This document shows, one piece after another, positions 31,064 through 64,000 of a stretch of 64,000 nucleotides of DNA. The stretch covers positions 96,001 through 160,000 of the IMG/VR virus record IMGVR_UViG_3300020048_003360, one strand, 5' to 3'. The notes beneath the pieces were generated by a model. That model did no database searches. It was not told where the DNA came from and worked only from the letters and a program-made list of their open reading frames with translations. This DNA is from a virus (Duplodnaviria; Caudoviricetes). Within the stretch, counting starts at the first letter, position 1; each line of letters opens with the position of its first letter. The translations under genes were made by a program, and so were the position numbers.

Positions 31064-32700
31064 CGATATATTCAATATGGTTCGTTAATCCATACCCGCA
31101 GCATTACCTGCAGCTCTAGCTCTCACTAGATGTCCAGACTATATCTTCACCCTCACTATATAGTGATAGGGTGTCTCCTATTTCCACTCACTTGAGTGTA
31201 CTCCCAGCTACGGGATAGTCGTTGAACGTTCTCCATAGAGCAGAGGGTGGTTTACACCACTCTCCATCTTACAGGAGCTTCGCTGCTGATTGTCTCTATT
31301 TGATTCTTTTCAAACCTTCATAATCTCTTTTCAGGATTATTGTGGTGAATCAACTTAAACGAGAGTTTCCAGCAATTAAAGAGAAAACTAATTGATTATT
31401 ACTAATCAATAGGACTATTGTGAGGTATTTCTTCCTTAAATAACCAACCATGGTGAGATTTACCAGAATGAAGTTTTTCTTTTAAGGTTCTTTTATCAAT
31501 CGAGAGATAACCAACTAACTTTCTAATGCTATTAAATTTTAATACTTCAGCTGTATTTAAATTAGTCGCTATAATCTTTCTAGGTGCAGTATAGACAGTA
31601 GATTCATATTCTGCTGGCCATTTATCTTCACACTTTATACGAAAAATATAGTTTTGACAACATTTTGGTTTAGTTGATCGCAATGCATTCAGGATTCTTT
31701 CTTCAGAAATTTTTGTTTCTTTGGTTAGAATCTTAATTGTATTTCCCTCAATTATAGATCCGGTTTTAATATTGTAAGCTTGGTATGGTCCTTTTAAACG
31801 AAGAACCTCATCACGGTTTAATTTTGAGTAATACCACTCACCTGAGTCATCGGCTAACTTTATTTCATATCGATTTAGAAATAAAATTGGAATATTACTA
31901 CTGCCTATGCTTCTAGAGATTTTTTTACTCTTTGACGTTAATCCAATTTTAGATAACGCAAGACCAATTGATGGGAATGATGTTTCTTGTCCAGTATCTA
32001 TATCGCGTACTCTACAAGGAAAATTATCATTCCTAAGACCACTTCTTACAGCATGTAAGTTATTACCTCTTGAAGAAGTCCATTGAAGGTTTCTTAGAGC
32101 ATAATTTAGCTTATTTCCGTCTCTATGGTTAATAAAACAACAGTAACCAGGATTATCGTTTCTAACAAATGCCCTAGCAAGAAGAATGTGCGTACTAACG
32201 CTTCTCCACTTACTCTTATCTGGATCATAAATATTGACGTATGGATACCCATATGGACCTATAGCTTCTTTTAGTGTTCTGCCGGTTTTACGTGACATCA
32301 CTAAACCATCTTTATTTATAATAAACCCAGGAAAGCCGGGTATAAGTCTAAAATCGTCTGGATATTCTATTGGTGTTTTTATCACCATTAAATAACCACA
32401 CTTAAGACCAATGACTTTTGATCTACACTCGATAAAACTAATTTTTGAAACTTCACTGTATGACAAATCAACTTCATAGTGCGCTATTAATCCTAACCAC
32501 CTTTTATTAAGTATCTGGTTAACAGAATCAATTACTATACTTATTAAGTTAGGATCACCATAACAATTGGTTTGATTATTGATATTACAATTACCATCAA
32601 AATCAAACATATATTGTTCATTAAGAAATAATTTTTTTAGCTCCATTGTACTTACTCCATGTTAGTCATAGAATGTACAACAGAACAATACTCACAGTTA
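31064..32700 (-). mobile_element. Group I intron 2 in RNAP beta, 1637 nt, containing an HNH gene
   Basis: 5' exon ends GAT(U); intron ends ...ATATCG before AAAGGC. Core elements TTAATTGCTGGAAACTC (P), CAATCAGCAGCGAAG (Q), GTTCAACGACTAT (R), GAAGATATAGTCTGG (S). Confidence 0.9.
31402..32646 (-). CDS. Intron-encoded HNH homing endonuclease (NUMOD4-like + HNH + NUMOD1-like repeats)
   Basis: IPGFPGFIINKDG...GYPYVNI; HILLARAFV...INHRDGNKLNYALRNLQW...NNLHA; three C-terminal xDxxTG...F.SI repeats. Confidence 0.88.
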   Translation of the reverse strand: MELKKLFLNEQYMFDFDGNCNINNQTNCYGDPNLISIVIDSVNQILNKRWLGLIAHYEVDLSYSEVSKISFIECRSKVIGLKCGYLMVIKTPIEYPDDFRLIPGFPGFIINKDGLVMSRKTGRTLKEAIGPYGYPYVNIYDPDKSKWRSVSTHILLARAFVRNDNPGYCCFINHRDGNKLNYALRNLQWTSSRGNNLHAVRSGLRNDNFPCRVRDIDTGQETSFPSIGLALSKIGLTSKSKKISRSIGSSNIPILFLNRYEIKLADDSGEWYYSKLNRDEVLRLKGPYQAYNIKTGSIIEGNTIKILTKETKISEERILNALRSTKPKCCQNYIFRIKCEDKWPAEYESTVYTAPRKIIATNLNTAEVLKFNSIRKLVGYLSIDKRTLKEKLHSGKSHHGWLFKEEIPHNSPID

Positions 32701-33612: not shown

Positions 33613-33953
33613 CGGTTTCTTCAATATGGTTCGTTAATCCATACCCGTGCACTAAAGCACTGCTCTAGCTTTCACTAGATGCCGAGACTATATCTTCACC
33701 TACTATTTAAATAGTTTAGGTGTTTCCTATTTCCACCCACTTGGGTGTACTGGCTGATAAAGCCATAGTCGTTGAACGTTTCTCATACTCTTTGAGGTTA
33801 GAGACTTCGCTGCTGATTGCCCATTGTACTATCTATTTCTTTTCAAACTATCGCATCTATCTTTTCAGATTACGCTGTAGTGAAATAGCTTTAGGGAGTT
33901 CCAGCAATTAAAGAAAATTCAATTAACCATTACTGATTAATCGGACCATAATA
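33613..33953 (-). ncRNA. Group I intron 1 in RNAP beta, 341 nt, no ORF
   Basis: P1 UGAU|UAUUA pairs with UAAUGGUUA, giving U-G at the splice site. P/Q/R/S elements present. Terminal G at 33613 precedes CCAAAAAGA. The junction restores DDPKR (equivalent to RpoB HDDANR). Confidence 0.9.
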
Positions 33954-36900
33954 ATCATCCATATCACTACCTGGTGCATTTAGTGCTGACGTACTCAATA
34001 GAGCAGTGGCACCACTTTCACCTACTGTATATCCCTTAGTCATACCTCTCAAATTAGTAAACTGTGGATCAGCACTGGTAAATGTATTTATAGCTACATC
34101 ACTACTATCTACAGTGGCCTCAGAAATAGTACCCATGTCATTTTTATGGTAGAGTCTAGTGCGTTTTGTCATACTGCGACTATTACGACCACCAGTACCA
34201 CTATAGGTAACAGCTTCAGTTTCTTTTAGATTCTGAATTGGATTAATATCATTTACAGTTACTACTGCCGGATCCTGACGTAGAGACATCCAAACTGCAT
34301 ACGGATTTAACTCAATTTGCTTATTACCCTTACCTGGTTTGGCATTATGCGCTCTAATTGCTTTAACCATTTCTGTATAGACTACACCAGCTACTCTTTC
34401 ATATCCTTTAATACGCATATGGCTGGGATCTAATTCATCTGGATGTTCTTCCGTTAACAGTAGTTCACAACTACGGATTAATAATCCATGGAATGTAGTG
34501 GGTTCTTTCATTTCCCGCAATAGTTCTTTAGTAATTGGATCAATAAACATCTGATACATCAGGTCTATTTCACGCAAATACTTAGTACTAGCACCATCTG
34601 TTTCTAATACATTCAAATAGACACTGGGTTTATCAAAGTCATATACACCATAGTCAATAATTGCTTTATGGTATTCATTGAATCCAGCCAGTATAATTGA
34701 TGCCTTCCTATCGTCTTTAGAAAATACTAGAGTCTCATCACTGAATACTAAAGAATATTCGTGTGATTCTAAATTCACTCTAGTGCCGGTATTCACACGT
34801 CTAGGCACCACACCCAGCAGCTTAATTAACCTACTCAAACCTAACTCATATCCTAAGATAATTCCAATCGGAATCTCTCTACCCATTACCTTAAGTTCAG
34901 CATGATCTACAGGTGCCTTCTTAGCATCTAGACCTAATAGATCTTCAATAGAGCAGAGATCTACCAAATCACCATTATTGCCAGTATATAATGCACCATC
35001 TGAATCCATTACTAAATAAATGTTAGTACCTAATGGACCAATGCCTTTTGTACTAGTAGTGGTATTTAAACCGACTATAATAGCACCATCTTTTTCATAT
35101 GCTTCAATGGCTTCTTTACCATATAGATCTAGACGTTCAGTATGGTCAAAATTAAGAACATATGTAGTTTCTTTACCAGTAATACCACTGTTAGCAGTAA
35201 AGCCCCTAAAGTTTTGAGCCAGTGAATTATACACTCTAGGTGCAGTAAATTGATTATCAAATACATTACCAGTATAGAGTTTAGTAATTGTTAGATTTGT
35301 ATTATCTAAACCCAATACAGTAATATTATTTTTTAACCATTGACAATAGTCATTTACTTTCTTATCACTCCTACTAATAAATGTTTTAGAGTAATAACTA
35401 GTAAGAGCTACGGTATCTGGAGATACCTTTCGTATAGGAAGGTCACCACGTTGCCTTCGTAACTTATACTTAACTCCATTAGACGTGTAAGTGCCGTCAC
35501 TACCAATTACCGGTAACTTATACCTCATTATAGAAGGCATACCTTCTACTGGTTTTACTTTGACAGTATAAAGTTCATAATCGCCCATTACGTCTTCTAC
35601 TACTTCTTTATCATATCCAGTTAATATAACTCCAGCATTCTGAATACTCACTACCATACCAGCAATATCTTTTTCTAATACATTAGAAATGTATTTTTTA
35701 TCAAAGTCATGTAAACTACTCTTTAGCATGCTCTTATCGATAACTGTAGGTATGTCTTTAAAACTATGTGATGATTCTATTTTTAAAGACTCTGGATTTA
35801 CATCAATAAACTTATCTAGAGTTTCCTTTCCATTTGGAGCTACAATACTACGATATGTTTTAGATAGTTCATTGAGTTTTTTATACTCACTAGCTGACAT
35901 CATCCCCATATCTGCCAGTCTATCACATACTCGTAATACACCATCTTCTAGTGTAGGCGCATCTCCTACTATTACTATATCTTCTATTTTATCTCCATCA
36001 TCATTCATGTCACCGTGGTGATTTATAGAGATAGTTTCTAACTCAGATAATTCAGCTTCTATTTCCTTATCTAACTCATCATCAGCAGTAATAGTTTCGT
36101 CTACATCTACTTCAGTTGTATAATCTATTTCCTCACTGCTATCGTCAGTAATCTCCTGACCACTACTTTGAGCAATTATTGCCTTATCTATATCCTTAGC
36201 TATAGTAGTACTATTATTTACTTCTGGTATAGTTACATCTTGTTTTATTACAGTAGTTTTAATAGTATCTATCTTAGATTTCTTAGCTAACTTAGCTGCA
36301 GCTGTTCTCACCTGGAATAGAGCCATCATAAGACGCAGGAAACGCATCTGTAGTTGCTTTGGATCAATACCCTTAGTGTTGGCATCGGGATTGAGTTCTA
36401 GCTCTTCCTTAGTGGCTACACGCCATCTATTTAGCCTACCTAAGTTTACTACAAAAAACTTACCTGACTCTTGAAAAATAATATTTACTTTATCTAATTT
36501 ATCATCTGGTACATTTGCTAATGCAGATTCTTTTCTATCCGGACCTACCCACTTCCACAACTCTAATAGACTTAGACTTTCAGGACTATTAAAGATCTTT
36601 ATGGTTTTTTGAGTAATGCCTTTACTGGCTAATCTTAAGTCAGCAATACTGGGTAAAATATTTGGTAGATTATACAAAATAAACTGATTTCTGTCAACTT
36701 GACCCGCTACTTCGGCTATTTTCTTCCATACAGCAGTTTCAGTATTCCACCATTTATAGTAAGCAGTATAATAAGACCGTAAATATCTATAAAGTCTAGG
36801 AATTACTCCATAATTAAATATAACCAGAGTATTAGCATCTTTACACGCATTAGTTAATTCTCGCATAATCCGAAATCTACGATGCTTAATGTGGTACGTA

Positions 36901-60943: not shown

Positions 60944-61470
60944 TTGTGCTCCTTAAGATATTTCTATCTATACTGTCATTCTAAATCAAGAGCATTATTT
61001 AGAATCTAGACTATGTTATCACCATATATTTGGTAGCTCTTACTCACCACACAGGTGGCTTGCTCAAATACTTAGGTATTCCGTTTCTAGTCTCTACACC
61101 TTCCTGTTATTCCTTAACGACTGTACCACTTCGATCCGTGGCCTTGGTAGGAATACTACGAGTTCAGGCTGGCTCGGCGCTGGCATATTAATAACTACCT
61201 TAGAACAGTCTTACTGCCGATGATTTTTCTTCGGAAAACCATGAAACCATCATCTGCTTCAGATACTTATTAACTTAGCTTTTGCCGAATTTACGGAAAT
61301 ACTACTAGCGGGTTTCCCTTGATACGTTACGCCTTTTCGCGTTCGTCTTACTATACCTGATTCCATTAAGGACTCACAAACATTTCTGCTTGCTCTTCGG
61401 CGATTATCCTATCCAGGTTATCGAAAACTGACTACCATATCATTTTTCGCTAGTGACCTATTACGACACT
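60944..61470 (-). ncRNA. Group I ribozyme core A, host gene not identified
   Basis: P3 TTCCGT/ACGGAA; P AAATTCGGCAAAA; Q GCCGAGCCAGCC; R GGTGTAGAGACTA; S ACATAGTCTAG; P9 hairpins; 3' TAAG. The 5' boundary is uncertain. Confidence 0.75.
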
Positions 61471-61476
61471 TTATTC

Positions 61477-61743
61477 TCACACTATATTAAACCTACCATC
61501 AAACAATAGGTTTTCATTTTGTAATCTGATGTCTCCAGAGACGTTCAAATAGTAGGCATCCTTAACCACGGAGCCGTCTTCTAGATAAACATTTATCCTT
61601 AAGACATGATTCCCAAGCGTTTCCTTTATGTCCAGAAACACTCTATCCTTTACAGTAACTCTGGTAGTTACTTTAAGGTCTTCACTTTCTCCAATAGTGA
61701 AGTCATTACCAATAAAATACCTAATCATTTGCACCTCCATCAA
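61477..61743 (-). CDS. Hypothetical protein between the two ribozymes
   Basis: 88 aa, GAGGAG RBS. Confidence 0.6.
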   Translation of the reverse strand: MMEVQMIRYFIGNDFTIGESEDLKVTTRVTVKDRVFLDIKETLGNHVLRINVYLEDGSVVKDAYYLNVSGDIRLQNENLLFDGRFNIV

Positions 61744-61761
61744 TTAACTCCTCATTAAAGA

Positions 61762-62510
61762 TTGTGCACCTTAGAATGTTTCCATCCATTTAGTCATTTA
61801 TGGTCAAGTGTATTACCATAAATCTAGACTATTATGCTCCTTCATTAACTGTGGTTCATATTAGAGCTTCTGACAGCCATATGGTATTTTAGGTACATCA
61901 GAATTTAAGTACCACAACTACTAATCTACTAGACAACTAACTTAGGATTCCGTTTTTATAATCACACCTTCCTGTCGTGTCTTTGGAGGTACTTCTATCC
62001 TCAGTACTTTATGGGGTCTTAGTCCCACTACAGGCTTGGCTCAGTATCAACATATTCTTTAAAATAGGCTCTTCATTACATTCGGGCAACCCTGCTAGAA
62101 CTAACCGAATGAATTCTATTTACTCAAACCCGTGGCAGGATTTAACTTCGATTTGAGTACCGTCTCTTAAAGAACTTAGTTTTTACTGATTTTACGGAAA
62201 CTGATATCTTTGATTAGATCATTGTGTCATTTAGAATGGTAGGTAAAGGAATTAAGTTTTTACACTACCTTTTTAACCTATTTTATCCATAGCCACGACT
62301 ACAGTGCTAATCTAAAGTAACCAGTGCGGTACTATGCTAGGTGCATAATTGTATAACTCTGCCTAGCGCAAAGCGTGTGTCCTTTACTACTAAAGTTCAC
62401 GGGAGTAAATGAAGCTATGGACTTCATTCAGGGATTTTTCTTCTGATTATGCTCATTGCCGAAGATCCACCCGTCGCACGGTCGTATACCCATGTCCATA
62501 GCATGGGTTC
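61762..62510 (-). ncRNA. Group I ribozyme core B, host gene not identified
   Basis: P3 TTCCGT/ACGGAA; P AAAATCAGTAAAA; Q ACTGAGCCAAGCC; R GGTGTGATTATA pairing with S ATAATAGTCTAG; same 3' architecture as core A. The 5' boundary is uncertain. Confidence 0.7.
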
Positions 62511-62511
62511 C

Positions 62512-62661
62512 CTACTTGCTGAAAATCTTTCTACACGAGTAATCTATCACTCGCTTATCGTTTATCATGTAAGACAGTCCCACATAATTACATCCTGATT
62601 CGGTTTCTATCTTGGAGTAAATAACTTCTCCAGATATAAGGAAAATAATGAGTAGATACAT
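62512..62661 (-). CDS. Small protein with hydrophobic N-terminus (49 aa)
   Basis: Hand-translated MYLLIIFLISGEVIYSKIETESGCNYVG...CRKIFSK after AAGGAG. Confidence 0.5.
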   Translation of the reverse strand: MYLLIIFLISGEVIYSKIETESGCNYVGLSYMINDKRVIDYSCRKIFSK

Positions 62662-62678: not shown

Positions 62679-62728
62679 TGGCCTCCCGTAGTGGACTCGA
62701 ACCACTGACCCCAATCTTAGAAGGATTG
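62679..62728 (-). pseudogene. tRNA-Arg(TCT) 3' fragment (positions 27-76 only)
   Basis: CAATC CTTCTAA GATTG GGGTC AGTGG TTCGAGT CCACT ACGGGAG G CCA; no D arm or 5' acceptor strand. Confidence 0.75.
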
Positions 62729-62734
62729 TTTAAT

Positions 62735-62816
62735 TGGCGGGACAGGTGCGACTCGAACGCACATACTCCAATTACGCGGTTAACGACGGCTTAGAAGGCC
62801 GTTGCGATACTGCCCC
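62735..62816 (-). tRNA. Non-canonical tRNA-Arg(TCT)-like RNA lacking the D arm, with a long variable region
   Basis: GGGGCAG/CTGTCCC acceptor stem, ACGGC CTTCTAA GCCGT anticodon arm, GTGCG TTCGAGT CGCAC T arm, G-CCA end. Confidence 0.7.
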
Positions 62817-63401: not shown

Positions 63402-63476
63402 TGGTGCCCAAGGTGGAAGTCGAACACCAGATCCCCGCATTACAAGTGCGGTGCATTACCATTCTGCTACAAGGGC
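63402..63476 (-). tRNA. tRNA-Thr(TGT), degenerate T and acceptor stems
   Basis: CCGCA CTTGTAA TGCGG anticodon arm, GCA/TGC D stem, CCA end; two U-U acceptor mismatches and a broken T stem. Confidence 0.65.
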
Positions 63477-63792: not shown

Positions 63793-63811
63793 TTTGTTCT
63801 CCTTATGGAAA

Positions 63812-63842
63812 TCCGGCGCTCTACCAACTGAGCTATTGAGGA
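63812..63842 (-). pseudogene. 5' fragment of an Asn-like tRNA (positions 1-31)
   Basis: TCCTCAA TA GCTC AGTTGGTA GAGC G CCGGA, then no anticodon loop and the RBS of the next ORF. Confidence 0.7.
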
Positions 63843-63852
63843 TTATTGTAAC

Positions 63853-63903
63853 TGGTGGGGGTAATCGGAGTCGAACCGATATACCTTGCGGTGAGGGATT
63901 TTA
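63853..63903 (-). tRNA. tRNA-Leu(TAA), 3' exon (5' exon outside the window)
   Basis: TAA AA TCCCT, variable arm ACC GCAA GGT, ATCGG TTCGACT CCGAT, TACCCCC A CCA. Confidence 0.8.
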
Positions 63904-64000
63904 CTTACCACTTCGGTTTTCACCGCCAGTCTTAGCCCTTGCGGGTTATCTTCTGTTCGTGGTCTGGACTATGCTATCGCCATATTACGATTTATCACCT
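63904..64000 (-). ncRNA. 3' part of a group I intron in tRNA-Leu(TAA)
   Basis: S element GATAGCATAGTCCAG, P9-type hairpins with GCAA and GAAA loops, terminal TAAG directly before the anticodon. Confidence 0.75.

Follow-up and report, generated by a model that had tools for sequence, protein, structure and literature searches.

Element B is a folded RNA of 580-745 nucleotides (nt) within a tRNA cluster of a phage genome (Duplodnaviria; Caudoviricetes), encoded on the minus strand of a 64,000-nt window that covers bases 96001-160000 of the 208-kb virus record IMGVR_UViG_3300020048_003360. Positions are those of this window and all features discussed lie on its minus strand, unless another contig is named. 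As originally predicted, B has a genuine group I-type fold without recognisable exons, and it can be shown from its sequence to have descended from the tRNA-Leu intron subfamily of this phage lineage. We describe here tRNA-Leu intron copies without a host gene or a 5' splice site, whose stems still pair and whose joining regions and 3' flank are conserved, in two distant phages. The comparisons presented below argue for the maintenance of B-type elements without a host gene, with constraint on their loops and flank. The reading that we favour, although tentatively, is that B may be a retained, non-splicing, cis-acting ribozyme module.

All strands of the group I core, namely the P3-P7 pseudoknot, P4-P6 and P8, were found in B in canonical order (Table 1), and the motifs first quoted for B are present on the minus strand where they had been placed. 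P3 is formed by UUCCGU (62199-62194) and ACGGAA (61953-61948), the latter followed by CCUAAG. P7 pairs GAUUA (61963-61959) with UAGUC (61831-61827) and is kept, as had been proposed, through a U.G wobble where the paralogous element A has a C-G pair; in the guanosine-site region the G-C and A-U pairs are kept and the third pair is U.G. The 9-bp P9 (AUUUAUGGU/ACCAUAAAU, 61823-61796) is followed by the last hairpin, GGAUG-GAAA-CAUUC (61787-61774), and by CUAAG up to G61770, after which GUGCACAAUCUUU begins. In the alignment the CUAAG-G junction at 61770 coincides with the end of UUAAG in A and with the end of GGUAAG in copy C, where the tRNA-Leu exon starts. We take the IC3 architecture, as known from the Azoarcus and Anabaena introns, to include GAGCCAAGCC at P4'/P6, a GAAA-capped last hairpin and CCUAAG in P8. 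Hallmarks of IC3 in B are GAGCCAAGCC, GGAAGGUG.., ACGGAAU-CCUAAG and AUAGUC, together with GAGCCAAGCCUG (62031-62054), which is also present in A, C and 41 other loci. Tetraloop-receptor contacts of the Azoarcus architecture join L9 to P5 and L2 to P8. The GAAA of L9 is present in B, as is ACUAAG..UAUGU in P5 (GCUAAG..UAUGC in A), presumably a receptor of the 11-nt type, the first pair of which differs from that of A by a compensatory change.

The hairpin-rich 5' part of B is significantly structured, in agreement with the original prediction: region 62351-62512 folds at -50 kcal/mol (z = -2.8 against 200 shuffles) and the P2 region (62201-62350) has a z of -3.2. No Rfam match at E<=10 and no BLAST match in the fetched loci was found for the 5' extension. 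Over 7 nt, UGCACCU (62346-62340) is perfectly complementary to AGGUGCA (61771-61765), a stretch that includes the terminal G, and the two are paired in the minimum-energy fold of whole B; by a rough estimate, the chance of a 7-mer match at that particular place is ~1%. AGGUGCA occurs twice within 45 nt on this strand, its other copy (61729-61735) being located in a second Shine-Dalgarno-like GGAGGUG just before an internal AUG at 61728, and either copy could pair with UGCACCU.

The origin of B is indicated by its relatives. When A was compared by BLAST with the whole genome it matched copy C, which straddles the window end inside a tRNA-Leu(UAA) gene, 2 kb from B. C consists of a 5' exon (GGGGGTATGGTGAAATTGGTAGACACAAGGGACT), a 444-nt intron beginning CTTTAATGGGTCACTAGCG and ending GTGGTAAG, and a 3' exon (TAAAATCCCT...) that runs on through the T arm to CCA; these boundaries place the intron after U33. 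P1 of C is GACU/GGUC with the U.G pair and P10 is UAAA/UUUA. C is missed by default ARAGORN as well as by Rfam. The word GGAAGGTGTAGAGACTAGA, common to A and C, was found in at least 119 IMG/VR contigs, 66 of which were placed in tRNA anticodon loops, mostly of Leu-UAA, by ARAGORN with introns allowed, while the remaining ones are mostly interruptions of protein genes, for example capsid genes. The nearest relatives of A and C are loci L018, L120, L106, L115, L024 and L104, and the best BLAST matches of A are the tRNA-Leu introns of L018, L120 and L106. A segment of P3 and J3/4 that B also contains (TTTCCGTAAA) is present in 6 of the 119 related phage loci, which are these same six, and five of them were assigned to tRNA genes by ARAGORN. 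On these comparisons, A, B and C are members of one small IC3 (Azoarcus/Anabaena-like) subfamily that was otherwise found mostly in phage tRNA genes. The suggestion that A and B define an undescribed class is thus not upheld, since both are diverged members of the IC3 tRNA-Leu-intron subfamily that shares TTTCCGTAAA and has an intact copy, borne by a tRNA-Leu gene, 2 kb away.

The Rfam group I model (RF00028) gave no match to A or B even at E<=10. It also misses C, L018 and L120, which are borne by tRNA-Leu genes, and its silence on A and B is therefore uninformative. This failure fits the absence of bacterial seed sequences from the model (Williams 2020, bioRxiv 10.1101/2020.01.27.920355). 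GOLLD, ROOL and other large phage non-coding RNAs found near tRNAs were considered and rejected, as no Rfam match was obtained and the core is clearly of group I. Among the relatives, L115:1030-1529 (plus strand) is close to A and C and lies between two open reading frames (ORFs) of an unrelated, GC-richer phage contig. Its P1 (CGAU/..GUCG with U.G) and P10 (CAUUAC/GUAAAUG) can be fitted to non-tRNA flanks, and the whole looks like a splicing-competent intron in an intergenic position; copies of the subfamily outside genes thus occur elsewhere. No relatives of the gene downstream of the L115 element were found. A 70-nt peripheral module is 87% identical between P5 of A (61198-61267) and P6 of the L018 tRNA-Leu intron (L018:737-805), which suggests that peripheral domains can change position within this intron subfamily.

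In contrast to C, B has neither tRNA exons nor P1. The Rfam tRNA model finds nothing flanking A or B, and the idea that their flanks are decayed tRNA-Leu exons was rejected because the similarity is not above that of shuffled sequence (p = 0.19-0.85). No ORF continuous across B was found. The upstream 49-amino-acid (aa) ORF is no 5' exon, as it ends where its homologue in L106 ends, and the downstream 87-aa ORF, considered as an intron-encoded protein or exon, has a stop codon directly upstream of its start, belongs to no Pfam or PHROG family and has its only homologue in an identical 1265-nt contig. Without tRNA exons, P1 and the 5' splice site, classical splicing of the intron type is not expected of B. 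It is improbable, in our judgement, that B nevertheless splices out of a non-coding stretch of the polycistronic transcript as a leader intron of the 87-aa ORF, with a 5' splice site located at some point in the 5' extension and the tail as 3' exon. The core and the terminal G are retained, the 7-nt complementarity between the guide region and the 3' junction resembles P10, and the intergenic L115 element appears able to splice in this way; however, no stretch of 5' exon with a U.G pair was found beside the P10-like segment of B, the guide segment can form a local 7-bp hairpin instead, and the upstream 49-aa ORF ends normally. Moreover, A shares the tail, yet its guide of the tRNA-Leu type (GGUC) does not match it.

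Element A had been described as a diverged twin of B, which is true of its 3' part only. From the guide region through P7', identity is 80-94% between A and C and 54-83% between A and B, whereas beyond P7' it is 70% between A and B and 47% between A and C. The similarity switches in A between CATAGTC and TAGATT, and on this pattern A is a recombinant of a tRNA-Leu-type body with a B-type 3' module and flank. The terminal bases of the tRNA-Leu 5' exon are still visible in A (AAGUGUCG vs AAGGGACU), which has nevertheless lost both the pairing with GGUC and the U.G pair in it, the GACU that is paired with GGUC in C reading GUGU/UGUC in A. The proposed covariation between the stems of A and B was confirmed: 28 pairs are identical, 10 are double-changed and still paired, 2 are changed on one side and still paired, and 1, the outer pair of P4, is broken, leaving 40 of 41 length-matched pairs intact in B. 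P4 has two compensatory pairs with respect to A, and P5b and P8b differ in length between A and B with full pairing in both. Given the mosaic nature of A, only the 3' module and the flank inform on evolution in the exon-less state.

One related contig, L106 (IMGVR_UViG_3300020048_000120), was found. It shares with this phage the tRNA-Met, an intron-bearing tRNA-Leu, the 49-aa ORF and two B-type pieces, while its neighbouring proteins other than the 49-aa ORF have no detectable similarity (tblastx E<=1e-5). The P5 domain of B is 77.6% identical over 107 nt to L106:3261-3366 (BLASTN, with tblastx in agreement), both of its stems differing by compensatory changes, and it is the only part of B for which BLASTN found a homologue outside this genome. 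This homologue lies in a piece that we call B106 (~L106:3480-3215, minus strand), which has a tRNA-Leu-like 5' end (GTTTGAATGGTGAAATT..), a T arm and a matching acceptor strand (TTCAAAC), with little beyond the P5 domain in between. The acceptor pair of B106 is perfectly complementary (GTTTGAA/TTCAAAC) and its P5 domain is unexpectedly well kept for a relic. The location of B106 in a tRNA-Leu relic indicates that B-type introns once resided in a tRNA-Leu paralogue and that copies do get truncated.

The second piece, X (L106:2870-2505, minus strand), ends 7 nt upstream of the tRNA-Leu gene. X keeps both strands of P7, P9 (AUUACAG/CUGUAAU), the AAUGAC linker, the last hairpin and CUAAG-GUG; no P4-P6 domain is recognisable in it. 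A covariance model, R1, was built from the 3' modules of A and B alone (60952-61008 in A). It scores 108.5 bits for the module of B and 23.3 bits (E = 0.003) for the homologous module of X (L106:2505-2583), which ranks top in L106, and over the whole genome it finds only A and B. Searches for further copies returned nothing from the INPHARED phages by blastn, none or only chance matches among viral contigs with four A/B-specific patterns, only L106 with patterns from the lineage tRNA-Met and the P5 domain of B, 94 chance matches without BLAST similarity with the metagenome pattern, and 2 chance matches among prokaryote genomes, inside a coding gene of Thiothrix metagenome-assembled genomes.

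Over A, B and X, the 3' module comprises 14 pairs with 100% of the cells paired, and 7 of these pairs are double-changed; slid alignments gave 0-1 double-changed pairs and 2/500 shuffles reached the observed value. Between A and B, identity in the module is 13/28 (46%) at paired and 32/39 (82%) at unpaired positions (Fisher p = 0.0035), and beyond the terminal G their flanks can be aligned for ~29 nt with 23/26 aligned letters identical and one 3-nt indel. The conserved tail that had been proposed is therefore present in A and B, and is ~29 nt rather than 17 nt long, but its GCACAAU is absent in X, which has only GUG and a U run. As compensatory change cannot outrun neutral change, either the loops, linkers and flank are constrained or the stems are actively diversified. 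Covariation together with a sequence past the terminal G that is more conserved than the stems is suggestive of constraint rather than free decay, as the original prediction had argued. A and B share a non-tRNA flank, the first bases of which recur in X, and the exon-less 3' end therefore seems older than the changes in the P9 and P9.1 stems. The P5 domain and the 3' module are still similar to those of L106 although the neighbouring protein genes, except for the 49-aa ORF, are not detectably so.

Several observations weigh against retention of B as a ribozyme. Its guide-region homologue could not be matched with any 5' exon partner that would form a U.G pair. J6/7-P7 reads GGUGU-GAUUA instead of GGUGUAGAGACUA as in A and C and is 3 nt shorter, the P7 bulge is U in place of A, P8 retains CCUAAG but has UGAAGG where A has the receptor half UAUGG, and no GNRA loop was found in the P2 domain, where A and C carry GAAA; any of these departures from the core could cripple catalysis. 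As the body of A is of the C type, P4, P5 and P8 may have acquired their compensatory changes while both lineages were still working tRNA introns. B-type sequence is present in just two genomes, and the covariation rests on 2-3 sequences. The truncated B106, and X without its P4-P6, show that such copies do decay, and the half-tRNAs at 63805-63842 (5') and 62680-62735 (3') together with small ORFs without relatives indicate an eroding cluster. The flank might also have served in the past as a real exon of some gene.

Many of these points would be expected if A and B were simply the dead remains of intron-bearing tRNA-Leu copies, with their exons lost by the same deletions and small-ORF insertions that broke other tRNAs of the cluster, with intact helices inherited from a past as working introns, with too little time for decay and with no present function. 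We regard this main rival as quite possible, if somewhat doubtful. B has no P1 and has an altered J6/7 and P8 receptor, A is also without the U.G 5' splice site, broken tRNAs and relative-less ORFs lie nearby, and the B-type copy of L106 has been reduced to a P5 domain between a tRNA-Leu 5' end and a T arm with acceptor end. The flanks of A and B have no residual similarity to tRNA-Leu exons, as expected from deletion and not from slow decay, and the recombinant nature of A indicates that the region rearranges. On the other hand, the shared non-tRNA flank would date the exon-less 3' end before seven compensatory changes in P9 and P9.1, and the unpaired positions and the flank are far better conserved than the stems. 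Just 1 of the 41 comparable pairs is broken in B, and the 3' module has been kept in a second, otherwise very divergent phage.

If B is indeed a retained cis-acting module, it would derive from an IC3 intron in the tRNA-Leu genes of this phage lineage that lost both exons and P1 with the 5' splice site, and it would have been kept by purifying selection as a folded RNA, probably transcribed together with the tRNAs and small genes clustered on the minus strand. The selected unit would mainly be the core with the 3' module (P7', P9, the GAAA hairpin and UAAG-G). In three cases the 3' module sits directly upstream of the next gene, which is the 87-aa ORF for B, tRNA-Met for A and tRNA-Leu for X in L106. 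The likeliest activity would be a reaction in cis at the terminal-G site, either hydrolysis of the 3'-splice-site type or structure-dependent processing, and the downstream RNA would thereby receive its 5' end or its translation-start region. That A, B and X represent a phage family of splicing-free, self-contained, group I-derived modules that cut, or modify as the lariat-capping ribozyme does, the 5' end of the tRNA or mRNA immediately downstream is a wider proposal, and one that we consider unlikely as it stands.

A Shine-Dalgarno-like UAAGGAG/UAAGGUG is present in the flanks of both A and B, together with a frame of 3 codons (AUG AGG AGU UAA in B and UUG AGA AGU UAA in A) in which AGG and AGA are synonymous. 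The flank of B carries the Shine-Dalgarno sequence and the start of the 87-aa ORF, which the 3-codon frame abuts; in A the frame abuts ATG-TAG, followed by the tRNA-Met. These features raise the possibility that only the 3' module and flank are selected, as a signal for translation or processing through the 3-codon leader frame and its coupling to the following start, B being otherwise a passenger and no ribozyme. X retains the 3' module and P7 without a recognisable P4-P6, A and B share (U/A)UG AG(A/G) AGU UAA with a synonymous change and an indel of 3 nt, and the module always abuts the next gene. Even so, we give this explanation very little credence: X and A precede tRNA genes and not ORFs, the P3-P8 and P5 domains of B are also maintained by compensatory changes, and the pairing between loop and tail is statistically unsupported. 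The latter, between the P9 loop and the terminal G with the tail (UGCUCUU/AGGAGCA in A), has one covarying position (p = 0.04, 0.46 and 0.11). Other roles of the tail were likewise rejected: consensus scans found no promoter or terminator site, with counts near the shuffle expectation, and as the anticodon and stem of a lost tRNA (GUG/GAG-CA-CAAUY) it would have C at position 37 and no T arm after it. The 15 exact matches of the tail elsewhere in viral contigs are all due to chance and unrelated to group I cores.

Table 1. Features of element B and of the surrounding tRNA cluster (window positions)
Feature	Position	Strand	Description
5' extension	62351..62511	minus	hairpin-rich, lies between the 49-aa ORF stop codon and the core
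Guide-region homologue	62340..62350	minus	AAUUAUGCACC vs ..AAUGGGUCA in C; homologous to the internal guide region of the tRNA-Leu intron
P2 domain	62201..62331	minus	long irregular hairpin closed by CUGGU/AUCAG; compared with A and C by eye
P3 5' strand to P5 receptor	62175..62199	minus	UUCCGU, J3/4 AAA, P4 5' strand AUCAGU, J4/5 AAAA, receptor half ACUAAG
P5 peripheral domain	62058..62161	minus	~105 nt; homologue at L106:3261-3366, minus strand
Receptor half to P6 start	62031..62054	minus	UAUGU, P4 3' strand ACUGAG, P6 start CC-AAG-CCUG
P6 3' strand to P8 start	61941..61974	minus	CAGG..GG, J6/7 minus 3 nt, P7 5' strand G(U)GAUUA, P3 3' strand ACGGAA, CCUAAG
P8 3' strand to P7 3' strand	61827..61852	minus	P8 3' strand ACAGUUAA, UGAAGG, J8/7, P7 3' strand UAGUC
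3' module	61770..61826	minus	P9 of 9 bp, AAUGAC linker, GAAA hairpin, CUAAG, presumed terminal G61770
3' flank (tail)	61741..61769	minus	GUGCACAAUCUUUAAUGAGGAGUUAAUUG
tRNA-like gene, odd	62816-62738	minus	followed by the tRNA-Arg(UCU)-like 3' half
tRNA-Arg(UCU)-like 3' half	62735-62680	minus	anticodon arm to CCA, without 5' partner
49-aa ORF	62661-62512	minus	upstream of B
Element B	62511-61770	minus	core (P3-P9) 62350-61770 plus 5' extension to 62511
87-aa ORF	61740-61477	minus	between B and A
Element A	61465-60952	minus	core A, paralogue of B; 35 nt upstream of tRNA-Met
tRNA-Met	60916-60841	minus	downstream of A
Copy C, 3' part	63853-64000	minus	intact tRNA-Leu(UAA); continues beyond the window (genome 159853-160381); from ARAGORN with introns allowed and from the sequence

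The locus had been called a tRNA array, a term that does not fit well, as the cluster is small and partly eroded. In the whole 208-kb genome, ARAGORN with introns allowed identified only tRNA-Met and the tRNA-Leu of C. To judge from its broken members, the cluster is eroding through small-ORF insertions. The tRNA-like piece at 62738-62816 has an acceptor stem, an anticodon arm, a long extra region and a T arm, with the D arm replaced by 4 nt (Rfam tRNA, 34 bits). It is one of two tRNA-Arg(UCU)-like pieces that abut within 62680-62816, where L106 instead has a single intact tRNA-Arg(UCU). What is left of the half-tRNA at 63805-63842 is the acceptor strand, the D arm, which is perfect (GCTCAGTTGGTAGAGC), and the 5' strand of the anticodon stem; it is cut short within the anticodon loop, where the small ORF that follows (63792-63490) has its Shine-Dalgarno sequence. 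A further tRNA, with mismatches in its acceptor stem and UGU (Thr) in its anticodon loop, is located at 63405-63476 (Rfam, 41.7 bits; ARAGORN is silent). Downstream of tRNA-Met, 60612-60698 matches a transfer-messenger RNA model weakly (13.5 bits) and is among the few stretches conserved with L106 (L106:905-946). Elsewhere on the minus strand, Rfam group I introns of a subgroup other than that of A, B and C are present at 31114-31465 (76.9 bits) and 33663-33966 (91.7 bits).

Group I introns are generally seen as selfish elements that survive only by clean splicing from a host gene, and to our knowledge the only accepted case of a group I ribozyme recruited elsewhere is the eukaryotic lariat-capping ribozyme. 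A family of processing modules, if it exists, would give that ribozyme its first counterpart in bacteria or phages and amount to a second, independent domestication of group I, and it could benefit a nucleus-forming jumbo phage, whose transcription takes place out of reach of host RNases. A processed or active RNA would illustrate how introns become domesticated in viruses and yield a tractable self-cleaving module; if inert, it would record the erosion of intron-bearing tRNA genes in phage genomes. This whole intron subfamily is overlooked by tRNA finders and Rfam. The introns and homing endonucleases of nucleus-forming phages have been reviewed (PMC12908238), and in the literature, as far as it was covered, no exon-less group I ribozymes in phage tRNA clusters were found.

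In comparison to the IC3 introns of tRNA genes, B has the same P3-P7 pseudoknot, P4-P6 with GAGCCAAGCC, J8/7-P7' with AUAGUC, L9 GAAA with a P5 receptor of the 11-nt type, CCUAAG in P8 and a terminal G after the last hairpin, and its sister copy C follows U33 of tRNA-Leu(UAA), the position of the Azoarcus type. B differs from them in being phage-borne and intergenic, without tRNA exons, P1 or the U.G 5' splice site. Its J6/7 is shortened and its P8 receptor half changed, large insertions in P2, P5, P6 and P8 bring it to 580 nt against ~200-250 nt, and its 3' domain is formed by two successive hairpins without a closing P9 helix. The L115 element belongs to the same subfamily and, like B, interrupts no gene and lies in front of a phage gene, but it retains a plausible P1 and P10, which B does not.

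A group I ribozyme controlled by a cyclic di-GMP-II riboswitch in a 5' leader of Clostridioides difficile was reportedly described by Lee et al. in 2010. Both that ribozyme and B are group I RNAs in a non-coding leader, and in C. difficile a reaction near the Shine-Dalgarno sequence decides translation of the downstream ORF; however, the C. difficile RNA is equipped with functional splice sites at both its 5' and its 3' side and with an adjoining riboswitch aptamer, whereas B matches no aptamer family and has no visible 5' splice site. This riboswitch-ribozyme locus is mentioned in PMC3649979.

The lariat-capping ribozyme (GIR1), known from the twin-ribozyme introns of Didymium and Naegleria, is the accepted example of a group I fold that abandoned splicing (PMC4167309, PMC3679873). 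It is a eukaryotic, nucleolar ribozyme that lies inside another intron, catalyses branching and is unrelated to B in sequence; it is ~180-190 nt long and has a DP2-DP2.1-P10 junction and a P15 pseudoknot, neither of which was identified in B. In common with B, it is derived from group I, is without P1 and does not splice (PMC4167309, PMC3679873). Both are also located directly upstream of a protein-coding RNA, and in both a 5' segment pairs, in B by prediction, just past the reaction site, which in B would be the terminal G.

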